This document shows, piece by piece, positions 6,893 through 16,129 of a DNA stretch of 64,000 nucleotides. Origin of the DNA: Escherichia phage Gostya9. Position 1 is the stretch's first letter, and each line of letters begins with the position of its first letter. Location: sequence record NC_047979.1; one strand, given 5' to 3'. A program made the position numbers and the translations under genes. Under the pieces are notes generated by a model. That model saw only the letters and a program-made list of their open reading frames with translations. It made no database searches and was not told the DNA's origin.

Positions 6893-7095
6893 TGACCGCG
6901 CCCGCTATGGTTAGCCTGCTAATGATTAGGGTGTTACGTGTCACCTTGCGTGATCGTTAGCCTGCAAATGATTAGCCTGCAAATGATTTGACCGCGCCCG
7001 CGATGGTTAGCCTGCAAATGATTAGCCTGCAAATGATTAGCCTGCAAATGATTAGGGTGTTATTTGTCGCCTTGTGTGATGGTTAGCGGGCTAAC
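6889..7095. repeat. two copies of a ~75-100-bp direct repeat containing 15-bp subrepeats (GATTAGCCTGCAAAT)
   Basis: TTTGACCGCGCCCGC..GGTTAGCCTGC..AGGGTGTTA unit seen twice with 2-3 tandem 15-mers inside. Confidence 0.8.
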
Positions 7096-7213
7096 TAATT
7101 TTCAAGCCTTCTTCAATTTTGCCCTTGTTTTAGTATCCCCACCAAAATAAAACGCGTTAGAAAGCGATTCAGGGCGTTTTAGGCCTATATTAGAATTATT
7201 CACTGCGTAGGAA

Positions 7214-7233
7214 TACTGTATAAATATACAGTA
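7214..7233. promoter_or_regulatory. LexA (SOS) box-like palindrome
   Basis: TACTGTATAAATATACAGTA, one mismatch to the LexA consensus; exact reverse complement of the 19-bp segment at 5484-5502. Confidence 0.65.
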
Positions 7234-7242
7234 GAATAACCT

Positions 7243-7323
7243 GGGGATAAGTCGGTGGATAACGCTTCAAAATGGCTAGAATTTTGTCAAGGCAAATCGT
7301 GCTGTTGATAAGTCTGTGGATAA
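7243..7323 (-). promoter_or_regulatory. DnaA-box cluster, opposite orientation to the 5395 cluster
   Basis: TGTGGATAA perfect at about 7315; GGTGGATAA and weaker GGGGATAAG / TTGATAAG nearby. Confidence 0.55.
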
Positions 7324-7340
7324 CTTAAATAACAGTGTTT

Positions 7341-7620
7341 CTCACTTCCGTTTTTAAATGCGAATCATTATCATTTGCACTCCACTTCTTGAATAGTTCT
7401 CATTCCACTTCTTGAATAGTTCTCATTCCACTTCTTGAATAGTTCTCATTCCACTTCTTGAATAGTTCTCATTCCACTTCTTGAATAGTTATCATTCCAC
7501 TTTTTAAATGATAATCATTCCACTTCTTAAATGATAATCATTTCACTTTTTAAATGAGAATGATTATCATTCGCATTCCACTTCTTAAATGCGAATCATT
7601 CTCATTCGCATTTAGGCGAG
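7341..7620. repeat. 23-bp tandem repeat array (CCACTTCTTGAATAGTTCTCATT, about 9 units with variants) containing palindromic sub-sites
   Basis: five near-identical units followed by diverged units; embedded palindromes AAATGCGAAT..ATTCGCATTT. Confidence 0.85.
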
Positions 7621-7636
7621 CAGGGCAATTGCCCTG
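7621..7636. repeat. perfect 16-bp palindrome CAGGGCAATTGCCCTG
   Basis: read directly. Confidence 0.7.
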
Positions 7637-7643
7637 CGCTTAT

Positions 7644-8443
7644 GTGCAAATCCGACAATTGCTCCAAGGGTTACGCGTGGGCATGTATGTGCAAATCCGA
7701 CCCATTTTTTGGTAGTGTGCAAATCCGACCCTAAAAATTTATAAATTCGTGAGAGTGACGAATCTGTCTCCCAAAAACTCCAGCAATCACGAACTGCGTT
7801 CGAATCCTGTGGGGTATGTGCAAATCCGACACGGTTTTTCTAGGATTAAGATGTGCGAATCCGATGAAATTTTTGTGACTTCGATGAGAGGGTGTGTGAT
7901 TGTATAGGTTTGAGGAGAAGGTGAGAGAGCGGGAGAAATTTTGGGACTAGAAGGATGTGGGCGCAGGATTGGTGCGGAGCACCTGATTTGCGGGGGTTTT
8001 GGGGGATAGTTGAGGTAATTTGGGGAAATTTGAGATAGGTGCAGAAAAAGTAAAATTTTATTAGCTAAATGGGGCAAAATAGCTTGACGAGTGAAAATTC
8101 TTGTGGCTCTAAAAACTCAGGCAATCACGGGCCTTCGGCCCGAAATAATGCTGCCATTTTCAGGAGATTATATGTTCCTAAAAACTTAGGCGTTTGTGCA
8201 AATCCGACCATAAGTTTCTAGAAACACAATGTACAAAACCGACAGTAATTTCTGGGAATGTGTTTTCAAAAAATGTCTTCTAGAAATAACCGCCCTCCCT
8301 ATAACCGCCCTATATTAACCGCCTATGCTAGAGTTTCTAGGAACAATGAAAACTGCCCTAGAATTTGTGCAAATCCGATGAATATTTCTGTGTGATCTCT
8401 AGAATTTATACTTATCAATTTCCTAGAATATGTGCAAATCCGA
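7644..8443 (+). repeat. dispersed direct repeat family TGTGCAAATCCGA(C/T), at least 8 copies, same orientation
   Basis: copies near 7644, 7688, 7716, 7817, 7853 (variant), 8194, 8365 and 8430; frequently followed by a T-run; one extra copy inside CDS at about 10107. Confidence 0.8.
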
Positions 8444-8495
8444 TGAATATTTTTGTGTGATCTCTAGAATTTATGCTTATCAATTTCCTAGAAAC
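8358..8495. repeat. ~70-bp tandem duplication
   Basis: TGTGCAAATCCGATGAATATTT..TCTCTAGAATTTAT..CAATTTCCTAGAA present twice in tandem with 3 substitutions. Confidence 0.8.
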
Positions 8496-8891
8496 TTAGG
8501 AGTCTGCTAGAAAGTGTTGAGCCATCCTAGCAGATGAGCGGCAACCGGTGTATCATCTTGAACACAGATATTGCCTTTAAATTTTTTATCAGTTATTTTT
8601 AAATATAAGATCCCCCAAGGTTCTCATATAGAGCTTTGCCCCCGCCAGAAGGTCTCGTGATGTTTCTAGTAATCTTTATTAAATTACCTATTGACTTGTC
8701 CTGTCGCTCCGTAACCTACGCTACAAGTCAGTAATTTAAGATTCCTGAACCACCACACCTTCTGTGTGGCAACTCTAAATGGTTAATTCTATTAACTCAT
8801 AGAGTTATGATAACATACATTTAGCTATCTGTCAACGAGAGTTTGTATTATTGTCTCGGTACAGGTATTGTGCACCGAGACTTGCAGAGTA

Positions 8892-9776
8892 TTATAATAA
8901 TTCTTGGTATGCTTTTTGATACGCCTCAGTATCTGTAGGTGTACCTTTTGCTAACGCAATTAGTTCATCCGTTATCTGAATATTCGTATTATAACGTGTG
9001 TGGAACTCGTCAGGGATTTCTAGATATCTATTTATGAACGCTGCAGCAAGCGGTGAAGCTACACCCATTTCTAGAACCCATCCAACATGGTTTTCAAACT
9101 TCAGATAAGGGGAATCAGATGGGGTTGGTGGGGTTACATCAATTTTCTCTGGTTCTTTTTCTGGAAGCAATGGATTACTATATAATGCTTCATCTGGAAG
9201 CACAGATTTACGCTCTTTAAATATATAAGTTTCTAGATCAGATGCCTTAGATCCTGAGTACACAGCAAAAACGCTAGCTTTACCTTGTGATGCCCTAACT
9301 GGTAGATAACTAGTAGGATAGCTTCTTAATGCATCATGGAATGGACTTCCTGAATATTTGTACGTATCTCCATAGAGATCATCAATATTCATTCGTTCAT
9401 CTTCAAAAATGTGAAATGACTTAAATGGTGGAATGGTGAAGTACTCCATCTGTAATCCATAAACTAAGAAACGATGTGCATATGCACTGATTTTTAAGAC
9501 TGTGAATGCTTTTTCACCTTCTTTATGGGCATTGCCCTTTGAAGTAACTGGGTAACGTTTACAAAACATCTCTACTAGACGTTTCTCATTAATATTGAGT
9601 GAGGAATATAAACGTCCATTTAGCCCTATAAGTGCATCGAACATAAATGCTAGTTTATCTTTTTCTTCTTGGGTTAGTCCAGGAAACGGAAGTACTTTAG
9701 CATTAGGAACACTATTATTCTCTTTAGGTTTTGTTTTACCAGCATTTTGTCTTAGTTTATCTTTAAAGTTATACAT
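8892..9776 (-). CDS. hypothetical protein
   Basis: 294-aa ORF; GGGAG RBS upstream; no motif recognised. Confidence 0.55.
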   Translation of the reverse strand: MYNFKDKLRQNAGKTKPKENNSVPNAKVLPFPGLTQEEKDKLAFMFDALIGLNGRLYSSLNINEKRLVEMFCKRYPVTSKGNAHKEGEKAFTVLKISAYAHRFLVYGLQMEYFTIPPFKSFHIFEDERMNIDDLYGDTYKYSGSPFHDALRSYPTSYLPVRASQGKASVFAVYSGSKASDLETYIFKERKSVLPDEALYSNPLLPEKEPEKIDVTPPTPSDSPYLKFENHVGWVLEMGVASPLAAAFINRYLEIPDEFHTRYNTNIQITDELIALAKGTPTDTEAYQKAYQELL

Positions 9777-9793
9777 TATTATCTCCCATTTTT

Positions 9794-9828
9794 AAGGTCT
9801 GGATGACCTTCTTTTTATTTTAGAGCCT
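9794..9828 (+). terminator. rho-independent terminator-like hairpin oriented on plus strand
   Basis: AAGGTC-TGGAT-GACCTT followed by CTTTTTATTTT; a second hairpin GAGCCTC-CGTA-GAGGCTC lies at 9831-9849. Confidence 0.45.
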
Positions 9829-9853
9829 CCGTAGAGGCTCATGTATTAGAGGG

Positions 9854-10450
9854 TTAACTACCTCTCTTATCTTCATTAATAACAGCTCCTAGTGCCCCCA
9901 TAATTGCATCTTCTATACTTCCATGCTTACTAGGATTGCTTAAGTGAATAGTATATGAGTTCCTAGAAACTCCAGAGTCCACAGGCGCTACGCTTTTCAT
10001 ATCAGACTCAAAAGCTTCTTGAGTATGTTTCAATTGTGCAGAAGGTCCATAATCTTCCCCAAACTTATATGACTGTGTACTACTTACCGCACCCCCACAT
10101 GGAACATTGTGCAAATCCGATGGATTATTTAACAGTGCAATGCCACTTCTCGGCCACAGGTCACTAACATGGGTACTAGGACGGTTAACCTCAGTCTTCA
10201 CAAGTTTATAACCAGCATCGATCAGTGCATTAATAAGGTTATCAGCTGGAATGCGAGCCTTGCCGAAAATCTCACGAGCGTTGTTGAGCCTACCTTCAAA
10301 ACCTTTACATGCTCTAATATTAGTGTGTGCAAAGGTTAGCTTCATAGATTTGAATTGTACAGTAGCAGTTAAATCTTTAAAGCTATAATCCCACGTATTC
10401 AGTTCATGATCTGGTACTACTTGAATAGATTGTTGTGCATATAAAGTCAT
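9854..10450 (-). CDS. hypothetical protein
   Basis: 198-aa ORF; contains an internal copy of the TGTGCAAATCCGA motif. Confidence 0.55.
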   Translation of the reverse strand: MTLYAQQSIQVVPDHELNTWDYSFKDLTATVQFKSMKLTFAHTNIRACKGFEGRLNNAREIFGKARIPADNLINALIDAGYKLVKTEVNRPSTHVSDLWPRSGIALLNNPSDLHNVPCGGAVSSTQSYKFGEDYGPSAQLKHTQEAFESDMKSVAPVDSGVSRNSYTIHLSNPSKHGSIEDAIMGALGAVINEDKRGS

Positions 10451-10635
10451 TATTTATTCTCCAGTTTGTCTAACAGCTTATGAGCTGCTAGATTATATTG
10501 TTTAAGCTCACGGTTAAGGCTTTGGTTCTCACATTTTAACTCTAGATTCTCTTTATTAAGAAGATTGCAAATAAATAGAAGTGCTAGTATAACTAGCAGG
10601 GAACCTACAAGCATTAAAAGAAAAAGACTTTCCAT
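10450..10635 (-). CDS. small membrane-anchored coiled-coil protein
   Basis: 61-aa ORF; N-terminal hydrophobic segment then charged helix. Confidence 0.4.
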   Translation of the reverse strand: MESLFLLMLVGSLLVILALLFICNLLNKENLELKCENQSLNRELKQYNLAAHKLLDKLENK

Positions 10636-11075
10636 TATTTTATCCCCAGTCTTAGCTTTGAAAACTTATTATACCAAACTATATGATTATCGTCAATTAC
10701 AAATTTATGATAACATGCTGGTACGGTATAGGTTCCATAATCCGTGACACGCTGCACAACCTTGTGTGCGCACAGTCGACATCCATGCCCTTCTAAATGA
10801 GATCTAGCAGTTTGCCAGTAATAGCCCTCATGGTCTGGACAATAGATCTCGACTTGCTGTTGCATTGTTTTATAATTTACACGCTCATACCCAAAGAAAG
10901 CCCCATGAGCTGCAATGGCTTTCTTGATAAATATAAGGTTTAGTGCTTCTTGCTGGAAGTCGGGATGTAGCTGCTTAATCTTAGTTCTATTAATAGATCC
11001 ATCCGATTTGATGAACCTATTTATTGGAAAGTTGTTAGCTTCCTCGATTAATAATTCATTTACTTTCTCTCTCAT
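10635..11075 (-). CDS. Cys/His-rich hypothetical protein
   Basis: start reassigned to internal Met (MREKVNELL) 2 nt after upstream stop; CPDH..H..CRLCAHK cluster. Confidence 0.45.
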   Translation of the reverse strand: MREKVNELLIEEANNFPINRFIKSDGSINRTKIKQLHPDFQQEALNLIFIKKAIAAHGAFFGYERVNYKTMQQQVEIYCPDHEGYYWQTARSHLEGHGCRLCAHKVVQRVTDYGTYTVPACYHKFVIDDNHIVWYNKFSKLRLGIK

Positions 11076-11076
11076 A

Positions 11077-11280
11077 TTATATACTCTCACAACTAAGGTG
11101 GAAACATTCGTAAGCATCCCCAGTAAACTCTTTACCCTGTAATAAACACTTAGCCTGGTCTTCTGGTACTCCAACATCTAATAATTGTTGTTTACTTGGC
11201 TTTTCAGCAAATACCTTTACAAAATACTCGCCATCCTGATTATACTCATTTATATCTCTAGTAAGGACATATACTTGCAT
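11077..11280 (-). CDS. hypothetical acidic protein
   Basis: 67-aa ORF. Confidence 0.4.
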   Translation of the reverse strand: MQVYVLTRDINEYNQDGEYFVKVFAEKPSKQQLLDVGVPEDQAKCLLQGKEFTGDAYECFHLSCESI

Positions 11281-11300
11281 TTGAAGTTCCTTGAAAACAT

Positions 11301-11330
11301 AAAAGGCCAGAACAATTAAGTCCTGGCCTC
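11301..11330 (-). terminator. rho-independent terminator
   Basis: GGCCAG..CTGGCC stem followed on minus strand by TTTTATGTTTTC. Confidence 0.5.
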
Positions 11331-11336
11331 CTAAAA

Positions 11337-11708
11337 TTAATGAAGTTGTTTACCACTTCTTAACATAGTGGCCGTTTCCATAAGACCTAGCGTAGTATCA
11401 CGCTTATTGATCTGTTTACCAAGTTCATCAGTACGTTTACTGATGTAAGCATTAATAGCCATATTCATAGCTGTAGCGAGATCTTCTTTGGTTATCTCTT
11501 CATCGTCTAAAGCTAGGTTAGCCAAAGAATCAAATGTGCTAGAGAGTCCTATAAGATCTGAGGTTTCTCCAGCCAAAATAGGATTAATATTATCTACTGT
11601 TACTTCTAGCATGGAGTTAACAATATCTTCACCGTCTATTAGACCAAATTCAATATTACTCTCCCACTCCTTCATCTGTTCCAGCAATGGATTTTTCTTT
11701 TCTGTCAT
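11337..11708 (-). CDS. hypothetical acidic protein
   Basis: start moved to Met preceded by AGGAAA RBS (MTEKKNPLL). Confidence 0.45.
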   Translation of the reverse strand: MTEKKNPLLEQMKEWESNIEFGLIDGEDIVNSMLEVTVDNINPILAGETSDLIGLSSTFDSLANLALDDEEITKEDLATAMNMAINAYISKRTDELGKQINKRDTTLGLMETATMLRSGKQLH

Positions 11709-12117
11709 GATAGAGGTTTCCTGTGTCAGTCGGTAAGAAGGATGATTGTGTCTTAGGTGGATGTTGCTTAGCAATCCAGTTAAGAATCAGCACGCGACTA
11801 GGAACAATATCGGTGTTATACCAAAAATCGTGAACCCATTGACGAGCATCTTCAAACTTACCAAATTTATACGCTTTCTTAAACAATTCAAATCCAAAAC
11901 AATCTGGTGTAAAGTCTACTTCGCGATATTGAACTACTTTAGAACCAGTTAGGTCTTGGATCGCTGCATTAATTTCTGTATGTGAGAATTTTGTTTCATG
12001 AAACTTATTAAAGAATCGGTAGTTGAAGCGTCCGTTCGTTTCGACAAACAACTGGATGAAAAGATCGTTAAATTGGTTATCAAACCAGTAATTCTGTAGT
12101 TGTTGTAGTGCTGTCAT
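11656..12117 (-). CDS. hypothetical protein
   Basis: 153-aa ORF; 3' end overlaps next gene by about 50 nt. Confidence 0.45.
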   Translation of the reverse strand: MTALQQLQNYWFDNQFNDLFIQLFVETNGRFNYRFFNKFHETKFSHTEINAAIQDLTGSKVVQYREVDFTPDCFGFELFKKAYKFGKFEDARQWVHDFWYNTDIVPSRVLILNWIAKQHPPKTQSSFLPTDTGNLYHDRKEKSIAGTDEGVGE

Positions 12118-12314
12118 TTACGAACTCCGTTAATTGCCGTGATAATGCCTTCGTACATAAAAGGAAGTAACCCAGAAGTGTAGAATATATTTTCCGTTAT
12201 TCCTAGATGTCGAAAAAGTATATTAAATAATGCTGTTAGAAATACAATCTGAGGAAGTAATACAAAATACTCAGTTACAATCTTTGGTGCTTGGTAAACA
12301 AGACGTTTTATCAT
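12114..12314 (-). CDS. small membrane protein
   Basis: 66-aa hydrophobic ORF. Confidence 0.4.
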   Translation of the reverse strand: MIKRLVYQAPKIVTEYFVLLPQIVFLTALFNILFRHLGITENIFYTSGLLPFMYEGIITAINGVRK

Positions 12315-12413
12315 TGTTTTTAAGTCTCCTTATTACTTTGGCCTGCTCCACAATAATGAAAACTGCAAGCACTAATAGTGCTATTAGCCCCGCAGTAATT
12401 GGTACTAAATCAA

Positions 12414-12758
12414 TCATGGGAGACGCCATACGTAATTAGCTGTCTGTAGAACTTCGGAAACATCATCATGTTGCATCACTACAGACGTTGGAGAGTAACT
12501 ATCCGCCAGTTCTGTACGAACCATCTCACGTTCTTCTCCAGTATCAATATTTTTAACAATCACTTTCATACTAAGAGGTGTTAATGCAGAAAGTGGTTTC
12601 CAAGAATCCTCAAGTTCAATCCCTACCTTTTTCTCGATTAACATGAGAACTTCTAGTGTATCATCTGGAATACTAATATTATTATTTACAAACTGCAACA
12701 GCTCATGCAAAGTATTTAATTCGTTAAAATTAAGTTTCATCTTTAATAATATCCTCAA
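12414..12758 (-). CDS. hypothetical protein
   Basis: 114-aa ORF. Confidence 0.45.
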   Translation of the reverse strand: MRILLKMKLNFNELNTLHELLQFVNNNISIPDDTLEVLMLIEKKVGIELEDSWKPLSALTPLSMKVIVKNIDTGEEREMVRTELADSYSPTSVVMQHDDVSEVLQTANYVWRLP

Positions 12759-12975
12759 TCATATCACAGGACTGTTGCAATTCGTCAGCAATGCGCTTAA
12801 CATCGGTCTTCGTCACTTTACCAATTAACATCACCAGTAACATAGAAAGTATAATAAGTGGTACTGGAATAACAAATAATGCTACCTTAGCTATATTCTT
12901 TGGTGTCCATGTGCGGTACTTGGTAACTAGAACTCCCACCACGACTAGATAAAATGCTAGAATAAACATTATCAT
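12730..12975 (-). CDS. small membrane protein
   Basis: 81-aa ORF with two hydrophobic segments. Confidence 0.4.
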   Translation of the reverse strand: MIMFILAFYLVVVGVLVTKYRTWTPKNIAKVALFVIPVPLIILSMLLVMLIGKVTKTDVKRIADELQQSCDMIEDIIKDET

Positions 12976-13253
12976 TTTTTAATCTCCGTGATTATCTGTG
13001 TACGCATTACTTTAGCAGGTAATTTATTATTCCCAACTATTGCTTCTATACTATTTAATTTTTCTTTAAGAATATCCGAGCGTCTTTGGGCTATTTCAAT
13101 ATCTTGTTCTTGCTCTATTAACCGGTGGTGTAGTCCATCATTAGTAATAAGCATACTTTCCATGTTTTTTCGTGCGTTTACAATCCCAATAACTCCGCCA
13201 ATCGCTACTAGCGTAGTAAGGACCAGTAACCCAATAAGGATTTCTATAATCAT
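12972..13253 (-). CDS. membrane-anchored coiled-coil protein
   Basis: 93-aa ORF; N-terminal TM segment. Confidence 0.4.
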   Translation of the reverse strand: MIIEILIGLLVLTTLVAIGGVIGIVNARKNMESMLITNDGLHHRLIEQEQDIEIAQRRSDILKEKLNSIEAIVGNNKLPAKVMRTQIITEIKK

Positions 13254-13786
13254 TTATTTAATTCCTCTAGAGTAGGTAAGGGTTTTGTAGGATCAAAAGT
13301 TTCTATAATAGCATTAGCTCCATGTAACTCTAACCGAAGCTCATTAGCTCTTTTAATCGCTAATCCTAAATCTAAGTAGTCAAAGAGTCCACCATACACA
13401 GGTTTTTTATTAATATCTTTATTTTGTACTTGCCATTTTTGGGCAGCTTTATGCCAAGAGATCCCTAAATACCCTGAATTACTGTAGCTAGTTCTATTCT
13501 TGTTATTTTCACTAGAAGTGACGTCTCTCAGGTTATCCCATCTATTATCCCATGTAACCCTATTTTTATGGTCAACTTCTTCGGGAATTTTACCCTCCAT
13601 GTACAAAAAGGCCAGTCGGTGAGCTTTATACCTTTCCCTATCGATACCTATGATAATATACCCATCTTTATCTGATGTTCCAGCTACAGAGCCTGCTTTA
13701 GCTCGGCCCCTGCTCACTTTTCTAATAAATTCGCCCGTTTCCGGGCGGTATTCAAATAGCTCTTTTAATCTTTCTTGTGTTAGCAT
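13250..13786 (-). CDS. HNH homing endonuclease (paralog 1 of 3)
   Basis: 178 aa; MLTQERLKEL..GYIIIGIDRERYKAHRLAF..VDHKNR..NRWDNLRDVT..ENN.NRT motif set; paralogous to 22939..23448 and 60885..61418. Confidence 0.75.
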   Translation of the reverse strand: MLTQERLKELFEYRPETGEFIRKVSRGRAKAGSVAGTSDKDGYIIIGIDRERYKAHRLAFLYMEGKIPEEVDHKNRVTWDNRWDNLRDVTSSENNKNRTSYSNSGYLGISWHKAAQKWQVQNKDINKKPVYGGLFDYLDLGLAIKRANELRLELHGANAIIETFDPTKPLPTLEELNK

Positions 13787-14076
13787 CTTTTCTTTAATTG
13801 CTTAACTTCACGCTCAAAGCTAGCTGCTCGGCGTTCTGCCACTGCCTGATGCTCTTTAGCAAAACGTGCTTCTTGTTTTGCGAGGTTGAATGCCATAGCG
13901 TTCTTGTTAAGAGAATCGTACATCTTTTTCATTGCTGGGATGGACATTTTCATCAGTTGCCCCTCAAATCCTTGCATGTCGAGGAGAATTGCTAATACGT
14001 TGGCCATCTCAGTCTTAGTAAGGTTAGAGGCGTCGAAGTCTTTAGTCATGTTTTCCATTAGAATTTCCTCTCTCAT
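13780..14076 (-). CDS. hypothetical protein
   Basis: 98-aa ORF directly downstream of promoter 14091-14119. Confidence 0.5.
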   Translation of the reverse strand: MREEILMENMTKDFDASNLTKTEMANVLAILLDMQGFEGQLMKMSIPAMKKMYDSLNKNAMAFNLAKQEARFAKEHQAVAERRAASFEREVKQLKKRC

Positions 14077-14090
14077 TAATTTATGAACTT

Positions 14091-14119
14091 ATTATACAGA
14101 ATTTTAAGGCTTAAAGCAA
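14091..14119 (-). promoter_or_regulatory. sigma70-type early promoter
   Basis: minus-strand TTGCTT-17-TATAAT (plus-strand attata-17-aagcaa) with conserved AATTTATGAA leader. Confidence 0.65.
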
Positions 14120-14136
14120 CTGAATTTTTTAATTAC

Positions 14137-14565
14137 TTACCAATCGTTAACGAAACCTGAGAACTCAGAAGTTAATACTTGTTCAAATTTCTCTGCAATT
14201 TCAGGATGATCTTTGCAGATCAGCTCAATACAGGCTTCTGGAGTCATTCCTTCATCTTCAGGATCACCATAATACTTGTCCCAAAGATCATCAGGGATGA
14301 TGTGCTCTGCCAAATCTTGGAAATAAACTGCCTGGTAACGTGGGGCTTCTTCAGCAAAGAGTTCTTCGATCTCTTCATCTGCCTCACCTTTGTAATCTGC
14401 CATTAATAAGGCATCAGTTGCGTAACACTCCCAGACCATCAAGCGTTCAGAAATAGGATTAGACTTATCCTGAACGTAAGACTGAAACAGGGTTCGGAAA
14501 GTTGCCTTAACTTGTTCAAACTTATCTGCTGCTGCGAAAACTAGAGCTTTATCAACTTTGTTCAT
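14137..14565 (-). CDS. hypothetical acidic protein
   Basis: 142-aa ORF. Confidence 0.5.
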   Translation of the reverse strand: MNKVDKALVFAAADKFEQVKATFRTLFQSYVQDKSNPISERLMVWECYATDALLMADYKGEADEEIEELFAEEAPRYQAVYFQDLAEHIIPDDLWDKYYGDPEDEGMTPEACIELICKDHPEIAEKFEQVLTSEFSGFVNDW

Positions 14566-14595
14566 TTTTATTCCTTCTCATCAATTTATAAAGTA

Positions 14596-14625
14596 ATTAT
14601 ACAGAAACTTAGGCATTTTAGCAAA
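14596..14625 (-). promoter_or_regulatory. sigma70-type early promoter
   Basis: TTTGCT-18-TATAAT on minus strand. Confidence 0.55.
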
Positions 14626-14732
14626 TAAAACTTTTAATTAAAATGCCTAGTCCTGTACCAACAGCAATACAAATGATTATAAGTATTGCTACTGCTTGTA
14701 TGATTCGTTTAATAATGGCCCCAGCTATACAC

Positions 14733-15254
14733 TTAGACATTTAACATCCAGCTAGTTTTATCATGAGAAGTATACTTACCACTCATGATGTCTTCCAGTC
14801 GTACCGGTGATTTTGCATACTCTACACAAACGTTAATATAGCGAGGGTCTCCCATTAACTCAAAGTGAGTATGCCCATGTAAGTTCTTCTTGCCCCTTAG
14901 CTCTCCCGGATGCACTGGAGCATGGGAAAGCCAGAAGTTTTTATATTTAACTAGTGATTGTATGTTATCTACAATTCCCACTAAGTCTTTGAAAGATAAC
15001 CCTTCTCGTTCTAAGTCGTGGTTCCCCAAAACTAATGTAGTTCTAACATTGCTAAAGAGTTTTTCGAACTTCTCCAAACCATTTCTAGATACAAATGCAT
15101 CTCCTAAAGTATAAAATACTGTACGCTTATCCTTCATGGATGTAATAGTATCCATGATAAATTCATCATGCTCTTCCATAGTAGAGAAGATTGGTCTGAA
15201 TTTAGTAATATTTGCATGTCCTAAATGGAGATCGCTCCAAAAGCAGACTTTCAT
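14733..15254 (-). CDS. calcineurin-like metallophosphoesterase
   Basis: 173 aa; DLHLGH, GDAF, LGNHD and GHTH motifs. Confidence 0.7.
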   Translation of the reverse strand: MKVCFWSDLHLGHANITKFRPIFSTMEEHDEFIMDTITSMKDKRTVFYTLGDAFVSRNGLEKFEKLFSNVRTTLVLGNHDLEREGLSFKDLVGIVDNIQSLVKYKNFWLSHAPVHPGELRGKKNLHGHTHFELMGDPRYINVCVEYAKSPVRLEDIMSGKYTSHDKTSWMLNV

Positions 15255-16129
15255 TAAAGAATCCTCTGTATGCCACAGCTATTATTTTTGTCAGTGGTAA
15301 ATGTTGTGATTTTGCCAGTTTCATCATTAACTTGCGCAACCGTCAACTGCCCGTTGAAGACACCGCCAGTATCTAGGTAAACACGATTCTGGTATAAAAT
15401 AGGGTAAGGTACTCCAGTATGCCCATGAAACACAAAGTCTACCTCATTAACTGGAGGTACTTCTACCATGTATTTTTCTTTAAATCCTGCATAACGCTGG
15501 AAATACGGGTGTTCCTCACTATTTTTGGACAAATGGAAGCCTATTTCTTGTATTACATCTCGATCCCATAAGTATGGTTCAACATGGTATTCAGGATGGT
15601 CATGTGGGTCTTCCTTAGCTGCTTCTACTTGTGCAATAAGGCTATCCCATACTGGGGTTTCTACTTCGTTACCGCATTCTTTGTACGTAAAAGGTACACC
15701 ACCATGAACAACACCATATTTCTTGCCACGATGCAGCACAGTCAGAAATACTGGAAGTTTTTCAGCCATGTCTTCGGCAATATTTTTAATGGTATCTGTA
15801 TCTAGTTCATTCATAGCCCACATACCACCGTTATACATCCAGTTAGTCCAATCTCCTCCAATCATAAACTGGTCGTGGTTTCCACGAACGCTACAGAAAC
15901 GTGGATTATACAAGAATTTGGCTAAAACTTGTAGGTTCTGCGTGCCTCGGTCAATTAAGTCCCCTACACATACAACGCAATCTTTCTTGCCGTTATACCC
16001 AGCTAATTGTAGTGCATCTTCTAGTAAATCGTTGCAACCATGAATATCACCAACAAAGAATAAGTTAACATCATCAGGTACTACTAGTGTTTTATGTACA
16101 TTAAATTCTTTTTTCATAATTATTCCCAA
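15254..16129 (-). CDS. Ser/Thr protein phosphatase (PPP family)
   Basis: 291 aa; GDIHGC, GDLIDRG and GNHD signature motifs. Confidence 0.8.
   Translation of the reverse strand: MGIIMKKEFNVHKTLVVPDDVNLFFVGDIHGCNDLLEDALQLAGYNGKKDCVVCVGDLIDRGTQNLQVLAKFLYNPRFCSVRGNHDQFMIGGDWTNWMYNGGMWAMNELDTDTIKNIAEDMAEKLPVFLTVLHRGKKYGVVHGGVPFTYKECGNEVETPVWDSLIAQVEAAKEDPHDHPEYHVEPYLWDRDVIQEIGFHLSKNSEEHPYFQRYAGFKEKYMVEVPPVNEVDFVFHGHTGVPYPILYQNRVYLDTGGVFNGQLTVAQVNDETGKITTFTTDKNNSCGIQRIL

Follow-up and report, generated by a model that had tools for sequence, protein, structure and literature searches.

The early region of bacteriophage T5 enters with the second-step-transfer DNA (PMC7472727), and in the T5 annotations the genes T5.018–T5.030 adjoin the left terminal repeat and the injection-stop repeat region, on its right side. 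Literature searches by gene name (T5.018–T5.030, T5p017–T5p029) returned no functional study besides that of T5.026, and one for a T5 transcriptome yielded nothing useful. When RNA polymerase is purified from T5-infected cells, the product of this gene, gpT5.026, comes with it (Klimuk et al. 2020, PMC7472727), and the protein shows nanomolar binding to the β subunit of the E. coli enzyme (residues 1–151 and 703–795); in a T5.026 amber mutant early transcripts go up, late transcripts go down and the phage yield is five-fold lower (PMC7472727). A genome-wide dCas13d knock-down of T5 (CRISPRi-ART), in which all of T5.018–T5.030 were annotated as unknown, scored these genes 'Not Fit' except T5.026, which was 'Fit' with p = 0.012 (PMC11879866 supplement). 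Thus, for T5, the genes other than T5.026 are dispensable on laboratory E. coli. Here we compare with this cluster the block at positions 8892–13253 of a 64,000-nt stretch of DNA from Escherichia phage Gostya9 (NC_047979.1), which is referred to below as the window.

Two other described systems are relevant to single elements of the block. Zinc fingers of the DUF723/CapR/DUF4397 type are DNA-binding modules of T5orf172 homing endonucleases, abundant in T5-like phages, and the stand-alone CapR of the Vibrio PLE satellite is a domesticated repressor (Barth et al. 2023, PMC10448857). T5 also carries an array named 'direct repeat D' at the injection-stop/terminal-repeat boundary (Wang et al. 2005 annotation AY587007; Davison 2020, bioRxiv 10.1101/866236).

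Correspondence of the block to the T5 early cluster

An initial annotation made from the sequence alone had counted twelve early genes in the block, and twelve minus-strand open reading frames (ORFs), arranged head-to-tail, do fill it. Eleven of them are the orthologs of T5.018,.019,.020,.023,.024,.025,.026,.027,.028,.029 and.030, whose names we use for them below, and the twelfth is a small ORF of 52 amino acids (aa). The block is therefore T5.018–T5.030 minus T5.021 and T5.022, in the same order and orientation as in T5 (NC_005859/AY543070; ORF018–ORF027 of AY587007) and in the same position beside the terminal repeat, with a protein identity of 77–98% per gene. When positions 8800–13300 were compared with phage genomes by megablast, 438 records matched, nearly all of them Salmonella and Escherichia phages; the T5 match has 92% identity and 99% coverage and corresponds to T5 10844–15814 (NC_005859 coordinates) according to three independent T5 annotations. 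The source phage is a Tequintavirus with ~92% identity to T5, and because the first position of the window aligns to position 44 of T5, the window begins at the left genome end. Synteny and orthology are borne out by each of the three T5 annotations and also by five further tequintaviruses. All twelve ORFs are intact in T5, Shivani, APCEc03, fp01 and HASG4, with ratios of nonsynonymous to synonymous substitution rates (dN/dS) of 0.02–0.35, except that the dS of the 52-aa ORF (0.03) is too low for an informative ratio.

Given this agreement, we hold it to be highly probable that in this T5-like phage the block is the early cluster farthest to the left, belonging to the second-step-transfer DNA, with its genes orthologous one by one to T5.018–T5.030. 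The initial annotation had placed it in an early region following repeats, which agrees with the orthology to T5 and with the second-step entry of this DNA (PMC7472727); its early timing in the present phage would follow from that orthology and from conserved promoter-like sites. As a whole, the block is already known, being a long-annotated gene cluster of a model phage family. It is also among the best-conserved genomic dark matter of a classic model phage, and the functions of T5.018–T5.030 would help explain how T5-like phages take over the host after second-step transfer and resist host defences. The described AT-richness is real but mild (36.6% GC against 39.3% in the whole window), and the block falls in the bottom ~5% of stretches of its length.

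Conservation is strongest on the right. T5.023–T5.030 show 84–98% identity among the compared tequintaviruses and are under strong purifying selection. Searches with tblastn located T5.023, T5.025, T5.028 and T5.030 in both Tequintavirus and Epseptimavirus, and T5.023, T5.028 and T5.030 in Sugarlandvirus as well; T5.025, T5.028 and T5.030 occur at 35–65% identity in other T5-like genera. The nearest relatives of four proteins other than the T5.019 product are in phages DT57C and DT571/2 (98–99% identity). T5 itself differs from the present phage in carrying T5.021 and T5.022, in having T5.031 at the right border of the cluster where an HNH-AP2 homing endonuclease stands here, and in its T5.019 allele, which in the block is of the Gostya9 type. 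The ~0.5 kb with T5.021 and T5.022 (T5 12695–13206) is missing at the 10635/10450 junction, and likewise in fp01 and HASG4, but is present in T5, Shivani, APCEc03 and DT57C; the two genes are therefore a presence/absence polymorphism within the operon.

The T5.026 ortholog (11656–12117, minus strand) is identical to gpT5.026 at 150 of 153 residues (98%, E = 8e-118), falls in phrog_4215 and occupies the same locus with no detectable difference, the binding itself being known for the T5 allele. By this close identity it is expected to bind the RNA polymerase β subunit and tune the early-to-late switch, as shown for T5. The suggestion that host-takeover functions would reside in the block is thereby borne out for one product, through a published binder of host RNA polymerase (PMC7472727).

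We propose that the block is a mixed set of genes rather than one system. The T5.026 product would shift transcription from early towards late genes. The T5.023 ortholog, retained without a nuclease, would most likely serve to regulate or block by binding DNA. The most tentative part of the proposal concerns the five very small membrane proteins and the three small acidic ones, which may modify proteins or the envelope of the host at an early stage of infection. The left end would be a two-gene variable module that phages exchange among themselves, made of a mosaic T5.019 and of a T5.018 cassette that includes a conserved hairpin element on its 5′ side; this module is the foremost candidate for an accessory function tied to particular hosts. 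Several points weigh against this proposal. The in vitro effect of gpT5.026 was weak and its mechanism was left unresolved (PMC7472727), and the roles given to the T5.023 product, the small membrane and acidic proteins and the left-end module derive from sequence features only. The structural model of T5.018 (predicted local distance difference test score, pLDDT, 75) gave no fold match and the AlphaFold (AF2) model of T5.019 is poor (pLDDT 42) and unfit for a fold search, so that no mechanism can be read from either. A direct hmmscan of the T5.023 product and of P0162 gave no PF05265 match even at E ≤ 10, and the T5.023 product reached no Pfam threshold. Finally, no plus-strand transcript was identified that the plus-strand terminator at the left end could stop. 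What the comparison adds to the known cluster is that two genes can be named, that accessory behaviour is confined to T5.018/T5.019 and that an intragenic repeat is constrained at the nucleotide level.

The block would be transcribed leftward by the host σ70 RNA polymerase in at least three units, from promoters upstream of the block, inside T5.027 and inside T5.023, with a strong terminator at 11333–11300. The σ70 promoter inside the 3′ end of T5.023 (10668–10696, minus strand; TTGACG-17-TGgTATAAT), predicted to drive T5.020, T5.019 and T5.018, matches the consensus at 11 of 12 positions with an additional TG, lies within an invariant 42-nt run (10656–10697) and is coordinate-equivalent to the promoter annotated in T5.023 (NC_005859). 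The intrinsic terminator between T5.025 and T5.024 (11300–11333, minus strand) has an invariant 14-bp stem followed by a U-run (−22 kcal/mol, z −4.9) and is the equivalent of the T5 terminator 13864–13898. An internal early-promoter region lies in T5.027 (about 12184–12264, minus strand), with a promoter-like site at 12213–12184; by coordinate transfer, T5P7 of AY587007 appears to map there. The promoter and terminator positions are thus shared with T5, whose annotated sites fall, in the window, on invariant blocks and on matches to the consensus. A further promoter-like site at 11104–11076, abutting the T5.023 start codon, was dismissed as chance. Rfam and transfer RNA scans of 7000–14000 found nothing.

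Just left of the block (8745–8880, minus strand), runs of 94 and 28 nt are 100% invariant in six phages. A hairpin directly after the T5.018 stop codon is followed there by a near-consensus σ70 promoter, TTGACA-17-TGtTATCAT (8835–8807), which points leftward into the non-coding repeat region with no ORF after it; the divergent phage S124 retains this promoter in the form TTGACA-17-TGTTATAAT. It is unannotated in all T5 records, and the region has no Rfam match.

The variable left end

T5.018 (8892–9776, minus strand) encodes a 294-aa orphan with cassette-like behaviour, named '33.8 kDa early protein' in AY692264. Its relatives in two large protein collections group into 39 clusters when 90% identity is required and into 18 at 50%, and no cluster in those collections carries a Pfam domain. 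The gene was found in 12 of the 28 IMG/VR loci that carry T5.019 and is missing or replaced in the other 16. In DT57C and S124 its slot is occupied by a ~245-aa phrog_8993 protein followed by a 118-aa ORF that holds only a T5orf172 nuclease. The slot proteins of S124 (hhalign E = 2.6e-4, probability 42%) and Sugarland (E = 7.6e-4, 25%) show only weak similarity to the T5.018 profile, in its N-terminal part.

T5.019 (9854–10450, minus strand; 198 aa, 100% identical to Gostya9 gp014) is the fastest-evolving gene of the block (dN 0.10–0.20). Its alignment shows a conserved N-terminal half, a mosaic of indel alleles at residues 93–127 and alternative C-terminal cassettes. Pseudogenisation of its orthologs was considered and rejected, since the apparent internal stops are due to indels; the exception is HASG4, where the gene is split into two ORFs in the record. 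A Cas1 identity was also discarded, the PADLOC matches (E = 0.03–0.05) being at chance level.

Six phages that differ at 20–60% of their synonymous sites have nearly the same 77-nt spacer between the two genes. Within it lies an invariant two-hairpin element (9789–9841, no strand assigned), whose hairpins, at 9794–9810 and 9823–9840, both fold far better than shuffled sequences (z −4.2 and −5.4). The first has a weak 6-bp stem (3 GC) followed by CTTTTTATTTT, giving a terminator-like structure at 9794–9820. A U-run follows on the plus strand only, and only after this first hairpin. The initial annotation had pointed out a plus-oriented terminator embedded between two minus-strand genes, and a GC-containing hairpin with an immediate U-run, as expected of a Rho-independent terminator, is indeed found on that strand and is invariant in the six phages. 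No plus-strand promoter-like site was found between 8400 and 9794. A 52-nt version of the element, allowing at most one mismatch, is present at 9 of the 11 loci with a close T5.018 and at none of the 16 loci lacking T5.018; because it co-occurs with T5.018, the element is assigned to the cassette of that gene. An antisense terminator is no more likely a role for it than a 5′ untranslated region, a processing element or a junction element.

The accessory character ascribed to the block therefore holds in part. The screened T5 counterparts were 'Not Fit' except T5.026, and the left end is variable, through the loss or replacement of T5.018 and the mosaic T5.019. In contrast, T5.023–T5.030, which are under strong purifying selection and found across genera, are not fast-turnover genes; accessory, exchangeable behaviour is confined to T5.018/T5.019.

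An unlikely alternative to the mixed set is an island devoted to anti-defence or host range, comprising the whole block or, at the minimum, T5.018/T5.019, whose products would neutralise immune systems of the host and which would be shaped by arms-race diversification. The allelic cassettes and indels of T5.019, with 268 clusters at 90% identity against the 39 of T5.018, would fit such diversification, as would the pseudogenised T5.019 of HASG4 and the exchange of T5.018 for phrog_8993 and T5orf172 nuclease genes in DT57C and S124 or its absence elsewhere. Dispensability in the laboratory and the small acidic proteins (isoelectric point, pI, 4.3–4.5), which have the size and charge of DNA mimics, are also in line with it. 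However, dN/dS stays below 0.35 even for T5.019, T5.023–T5.030 are conserved across genera, and the protection of T5 against restriction has been attributed to pre-early rather than early functions (PMC10644984). The products have no similarity to a known defence-associated model or characterised protein, and the anti-defence role raised by the initial annotation found no backing: no defence-related model matched, the best PADLOC values (E ≥ 0.0018) being at chance level, in searches that included no dedicated anti-defence library.

Small membrane and acidic proteins

The claim that the block encodes membrane proteins is correct for five ORFs, each with a hydrophobic segment of transmembrane (TM) length. 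All are on the minus strand. T5.020 (10450–10635, 61 aa) has an N-terminal TM segment and a charged helical tail; T5.027 (12114–12314) encodes a 66-aa membrane protein and contains the early-promoter region described above; the 52-aa ORF lies at 12271–12429. T5.029 (12730–12975, 81 aa) has two TM segments and matches Pfam DUF7442 (PF24226) over its full length (E = 5e-41, 138.8 bits; cutoff 23.8), a family described in Pfam as a phage membrane protein family. T5.030 (12972–13253, 93 aa; phrog_4984) combines an N-terminal TM segment with a long charged helix.

The 52-aa ORF is not annotated in the T5 RefSeq record and was outside the set screened by CRISPRi-ART (PMC11879866). It probably starts at 12417, which gives 48 aa and an ATGA overlap with the T5.028 stop codon. 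The ORF is annotated in HASG4 and open in all five relatives compared, and the divergent phage S124 has a GTGA overlap and a 36-aa hydrophobic peptide at the same position; no PHROG or Pfam family was found for it.

Three products encoded on the same strand are acidic: those of T5.024 (11077–11280, 67 aa, pI 4.5), T5.025 (11337–11708, 123 aa, or 112 aa from M12, pI 4.3) and T5.028 (12414–12740, 108 aa, pI 4.5). T5.025 occurs in 437 phage records, all T5-like, and T5.028 in 525, including those of Klebsiella and Proteus T5-like phages.

Searches of Pfam, NCBIfam, PADLOC and PDB sequences gave nothing credible for products other than those of T5.023, T5.026 and T5.029, and NCBIfam had no match for any of the ten proteins tested. 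The initial statement that these genes were unannotatable and belonged to no known family thus needs correction for T5.026, for the DUF723-like zinc-finger protein and for the DUF7442 protein, and stands for the remaining orphans. Clear homology to structural or housekeeping phage proteins, which would have spoken against the idea of an early accessory region, was not found, and the idea is not refuted.

It is improbable, though in keeping with several features, that the five TM proteins form a superinfection-exclusion or envelope-remodelling set that seals the infected cell early or modulates lysis timing. They are five of twelve products, 48–93 aa long with one or two TM segments, two have long charged helices, and they are early genes by orthology and conserved in all T5-like genera examined; the membership of one in a phage membrane protein family points the same way. 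Against this, they have no homology to known exclusion or holin/antiholin proteins, which leaves the idea as an analogy, and they were 'Not Fit' in the T5 screen, a screen that included no superinfection test.

The zinc-finger protein and the repeat D copy

The T5.023 ortholog (10635–11075, minus strand), singled out earlier as Cys/His-rich, is a basic protein of 146 aa with four Cys and eight His, of which C79, H82, H93, C99 and C102 are invariant in 12 family sequences of 44–96% identity. It belongs to phrog_4605 and has weak PHROG matches to two endonuclease families (E = 1e-8 and 2.5e-5). Its first 103 aa share 63% identity (E = 4e-47) with the N terminus of P0169, a 242-aa 'endonuclease' of Salmonella phage S124 whose T5orf172 domain (PF10544) covers residues 129–226 (27.6 bits; cutoff 20). 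A Pfam scan showed the PF10544 nuclease domain to be absent from the T5.023 product, which ends instead in an unrelated 43-aa tail, conserved within its own family across Tequinta-, Epseptima- and Sugarlandvirus. Full-length homologs were found in 523 records of these three genera, and the zinc-finger segment matches genes labelled 'endonuclease' or 'DUF723' in ~1000 phage records, including Vibrio and Klebsiella phages. PF05265 appears in the precomputed annotation of all 11 homolog clusters, and the Vibrio phage matches to the segment are labelled 'DUF723 domain-containing'; as the direct Pfam scan was empty, the DUF723 label rests on precomputed annotation and on the homology to the endonuclease N terminus. 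Two other identities, GajA (PADLOC E = 0.0018) and a uS14 zinc ribbon (PDB E = 0.2–0.8), were rejected because they reflect only Cys/His spacing.

The Cys/His signature and the N-terminal identity liken the protein to the DUF723/CapR-type modules of T5orf172 (GIY-YIG-like) endonucleases and suggest that it is a sequence-specific zinc-finger DNA-binding module of this type lacking the nuclease. Like CapR it stands alone, and unlike the T5orf172 homing endonucleases it carries a conserved ~40-aa C-terminal tail of its own in place of the nuclease domain; lacking that domain, it is not a homing endonuclease. Its dN/dS of 0.04–0.10 argues for a maintained, nuclease-less DNA-binding protein and not debris. 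With T5.026 explained, the problem posed by the block is thereby narrowed, and T5.023 becomes a candidate domesticated endonuclease DNA-binding module with a testable activity.

The nuclease-only ORF of 118 aa noted above in DT57C (locus L036, 230–583) and S124 (locus L034, 3827–4183), which lack T5.018, lies ~2 kb from T5.023. Both halves of a homing endonuclease therefore exist as separate genes in the same phages.

The initial annotation had also noticed an internal copy of a dispersed motif in one gene. This 13-mer, TGTGCAAATCCGA, has nine exact copies in the 64 kb, eight at 7643–8443 and one at 10108–10120 inside T5.019, and with up to two mismatches it is found at 12 sites against 1.3 expected by chance. 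The intragenic copy (10108–10130, plus strand; core 10108–10120) matches the array copy at 8431 at 21 of 23 positions and reads AAT AAT CCA TCG GAT TTG CAC A on the coding strand, encoding N-N-P-S-D-L-H. It is 'direct repeat D copy 10' of AY587007, so that T5 shares the 13-mer, its strand and the tenth copy in ORF019. With at most one mismatch, the copy is present in 27 of the 28 loci, always on the strand of the array and never on the opposite one. A comparison of 29 distinct T5.019 coding sequences, whose products are as little as 53% identical, shows just one codon in use for each of S, D, H, N and the V that comes next; only 28% of the conserved degenerate columns in T5.019 show single-codon use. 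The probability of this pattern is roughly 0.002–0.006, ignoring phylogenetic non-independence. Synonymous positions are fixed throughout the copy, and a Leu/Met polymorphism stays within the variants seen in the array copies, showing that the repeat D copy is under nucleotide-level constraint.

Klebsiella phage Sugarland (locus L037, 4141–4704) has a nine-copy, same-strand array of the repeat D motif, which includes the TGTGCATATCCGA variant corresponding to the Met allele and begins 2 nt past the terminal-repeat end predicted by PhageTerm. The array is thus conserved in another Demerecviridae genus, Sugarlandvirus. Neither the synonymous-site fixation of the copy nor the persistence of motif and array in Sugarlandvirus is stated in the T5 records or the passages of Davison (2020) consulted. 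The constraint and the Sugarland array together point to a sequence-specific ligand on the DNA or on the leftward RNA and, as a modest lead, they provide a practical way into the repeat array of the injection-stop region, which has long lacked an explanation.

Directly left of the repeat D array, positions 7400–7610 hold tandem 23-nt repeats (TCATTCCACTTCTTGAATAGTTC, at least five copies) and related 35-nt units; similar units of the CATTCGCATTC type precede the array in Sugarland.

As a long shot, the repeat D sites could act together with the invariant promoter that follows T5.018 and points leftward, as parts of a nucleoprotein or RNA element with a possible role in the control of second-step transfer, of the processing of the terminal repeat or of transcription early in infection. 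In this reading, the 13-mer would be a Demerecviridae-wide protein-binding site whose array marks the first-/second-step boundary beside the terminal-repeat end and whose outlying T5.019 copy is deliberately maintained. These sites might be read by the product of T5.023, the zinc-finger protein without a nuclease, whose gene lies 0.5 kb away.

A reading of both elements as functionless debris, with T5.023 a homing endonuclease in decay and the intragenic repeat a scar of recombination with the neighbouring array, is highly improbable: the 103 aa shared with a full T5orf172 endonuclease, the missing nuclease, the homing endonuclease genes flanking the block (HNH at 13250–13786) and the indel hotspot of T5.019 that the copy abuts would suit such debris, but no gene of the block is under tighter constraint than T5.023, whose private C-terminal tail is conserved across three genera, and none of the synonymous positions of the copy varies among 29 distinct sequences, which is the reverse of what a scar in decay would show.

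The flanking gene at the right border (13250–13786, minus strand) encodes an HNH_3 homing endonuclease with a weak AP2-like C terminus; it is present in APCEc03 and fp01 and absent from T5. The next two early genes, at 13780–14076 and 14137–14565 (both minus strand), belong to the uncharacterised Pfam families DUF7179 and DUF7020, respectively.

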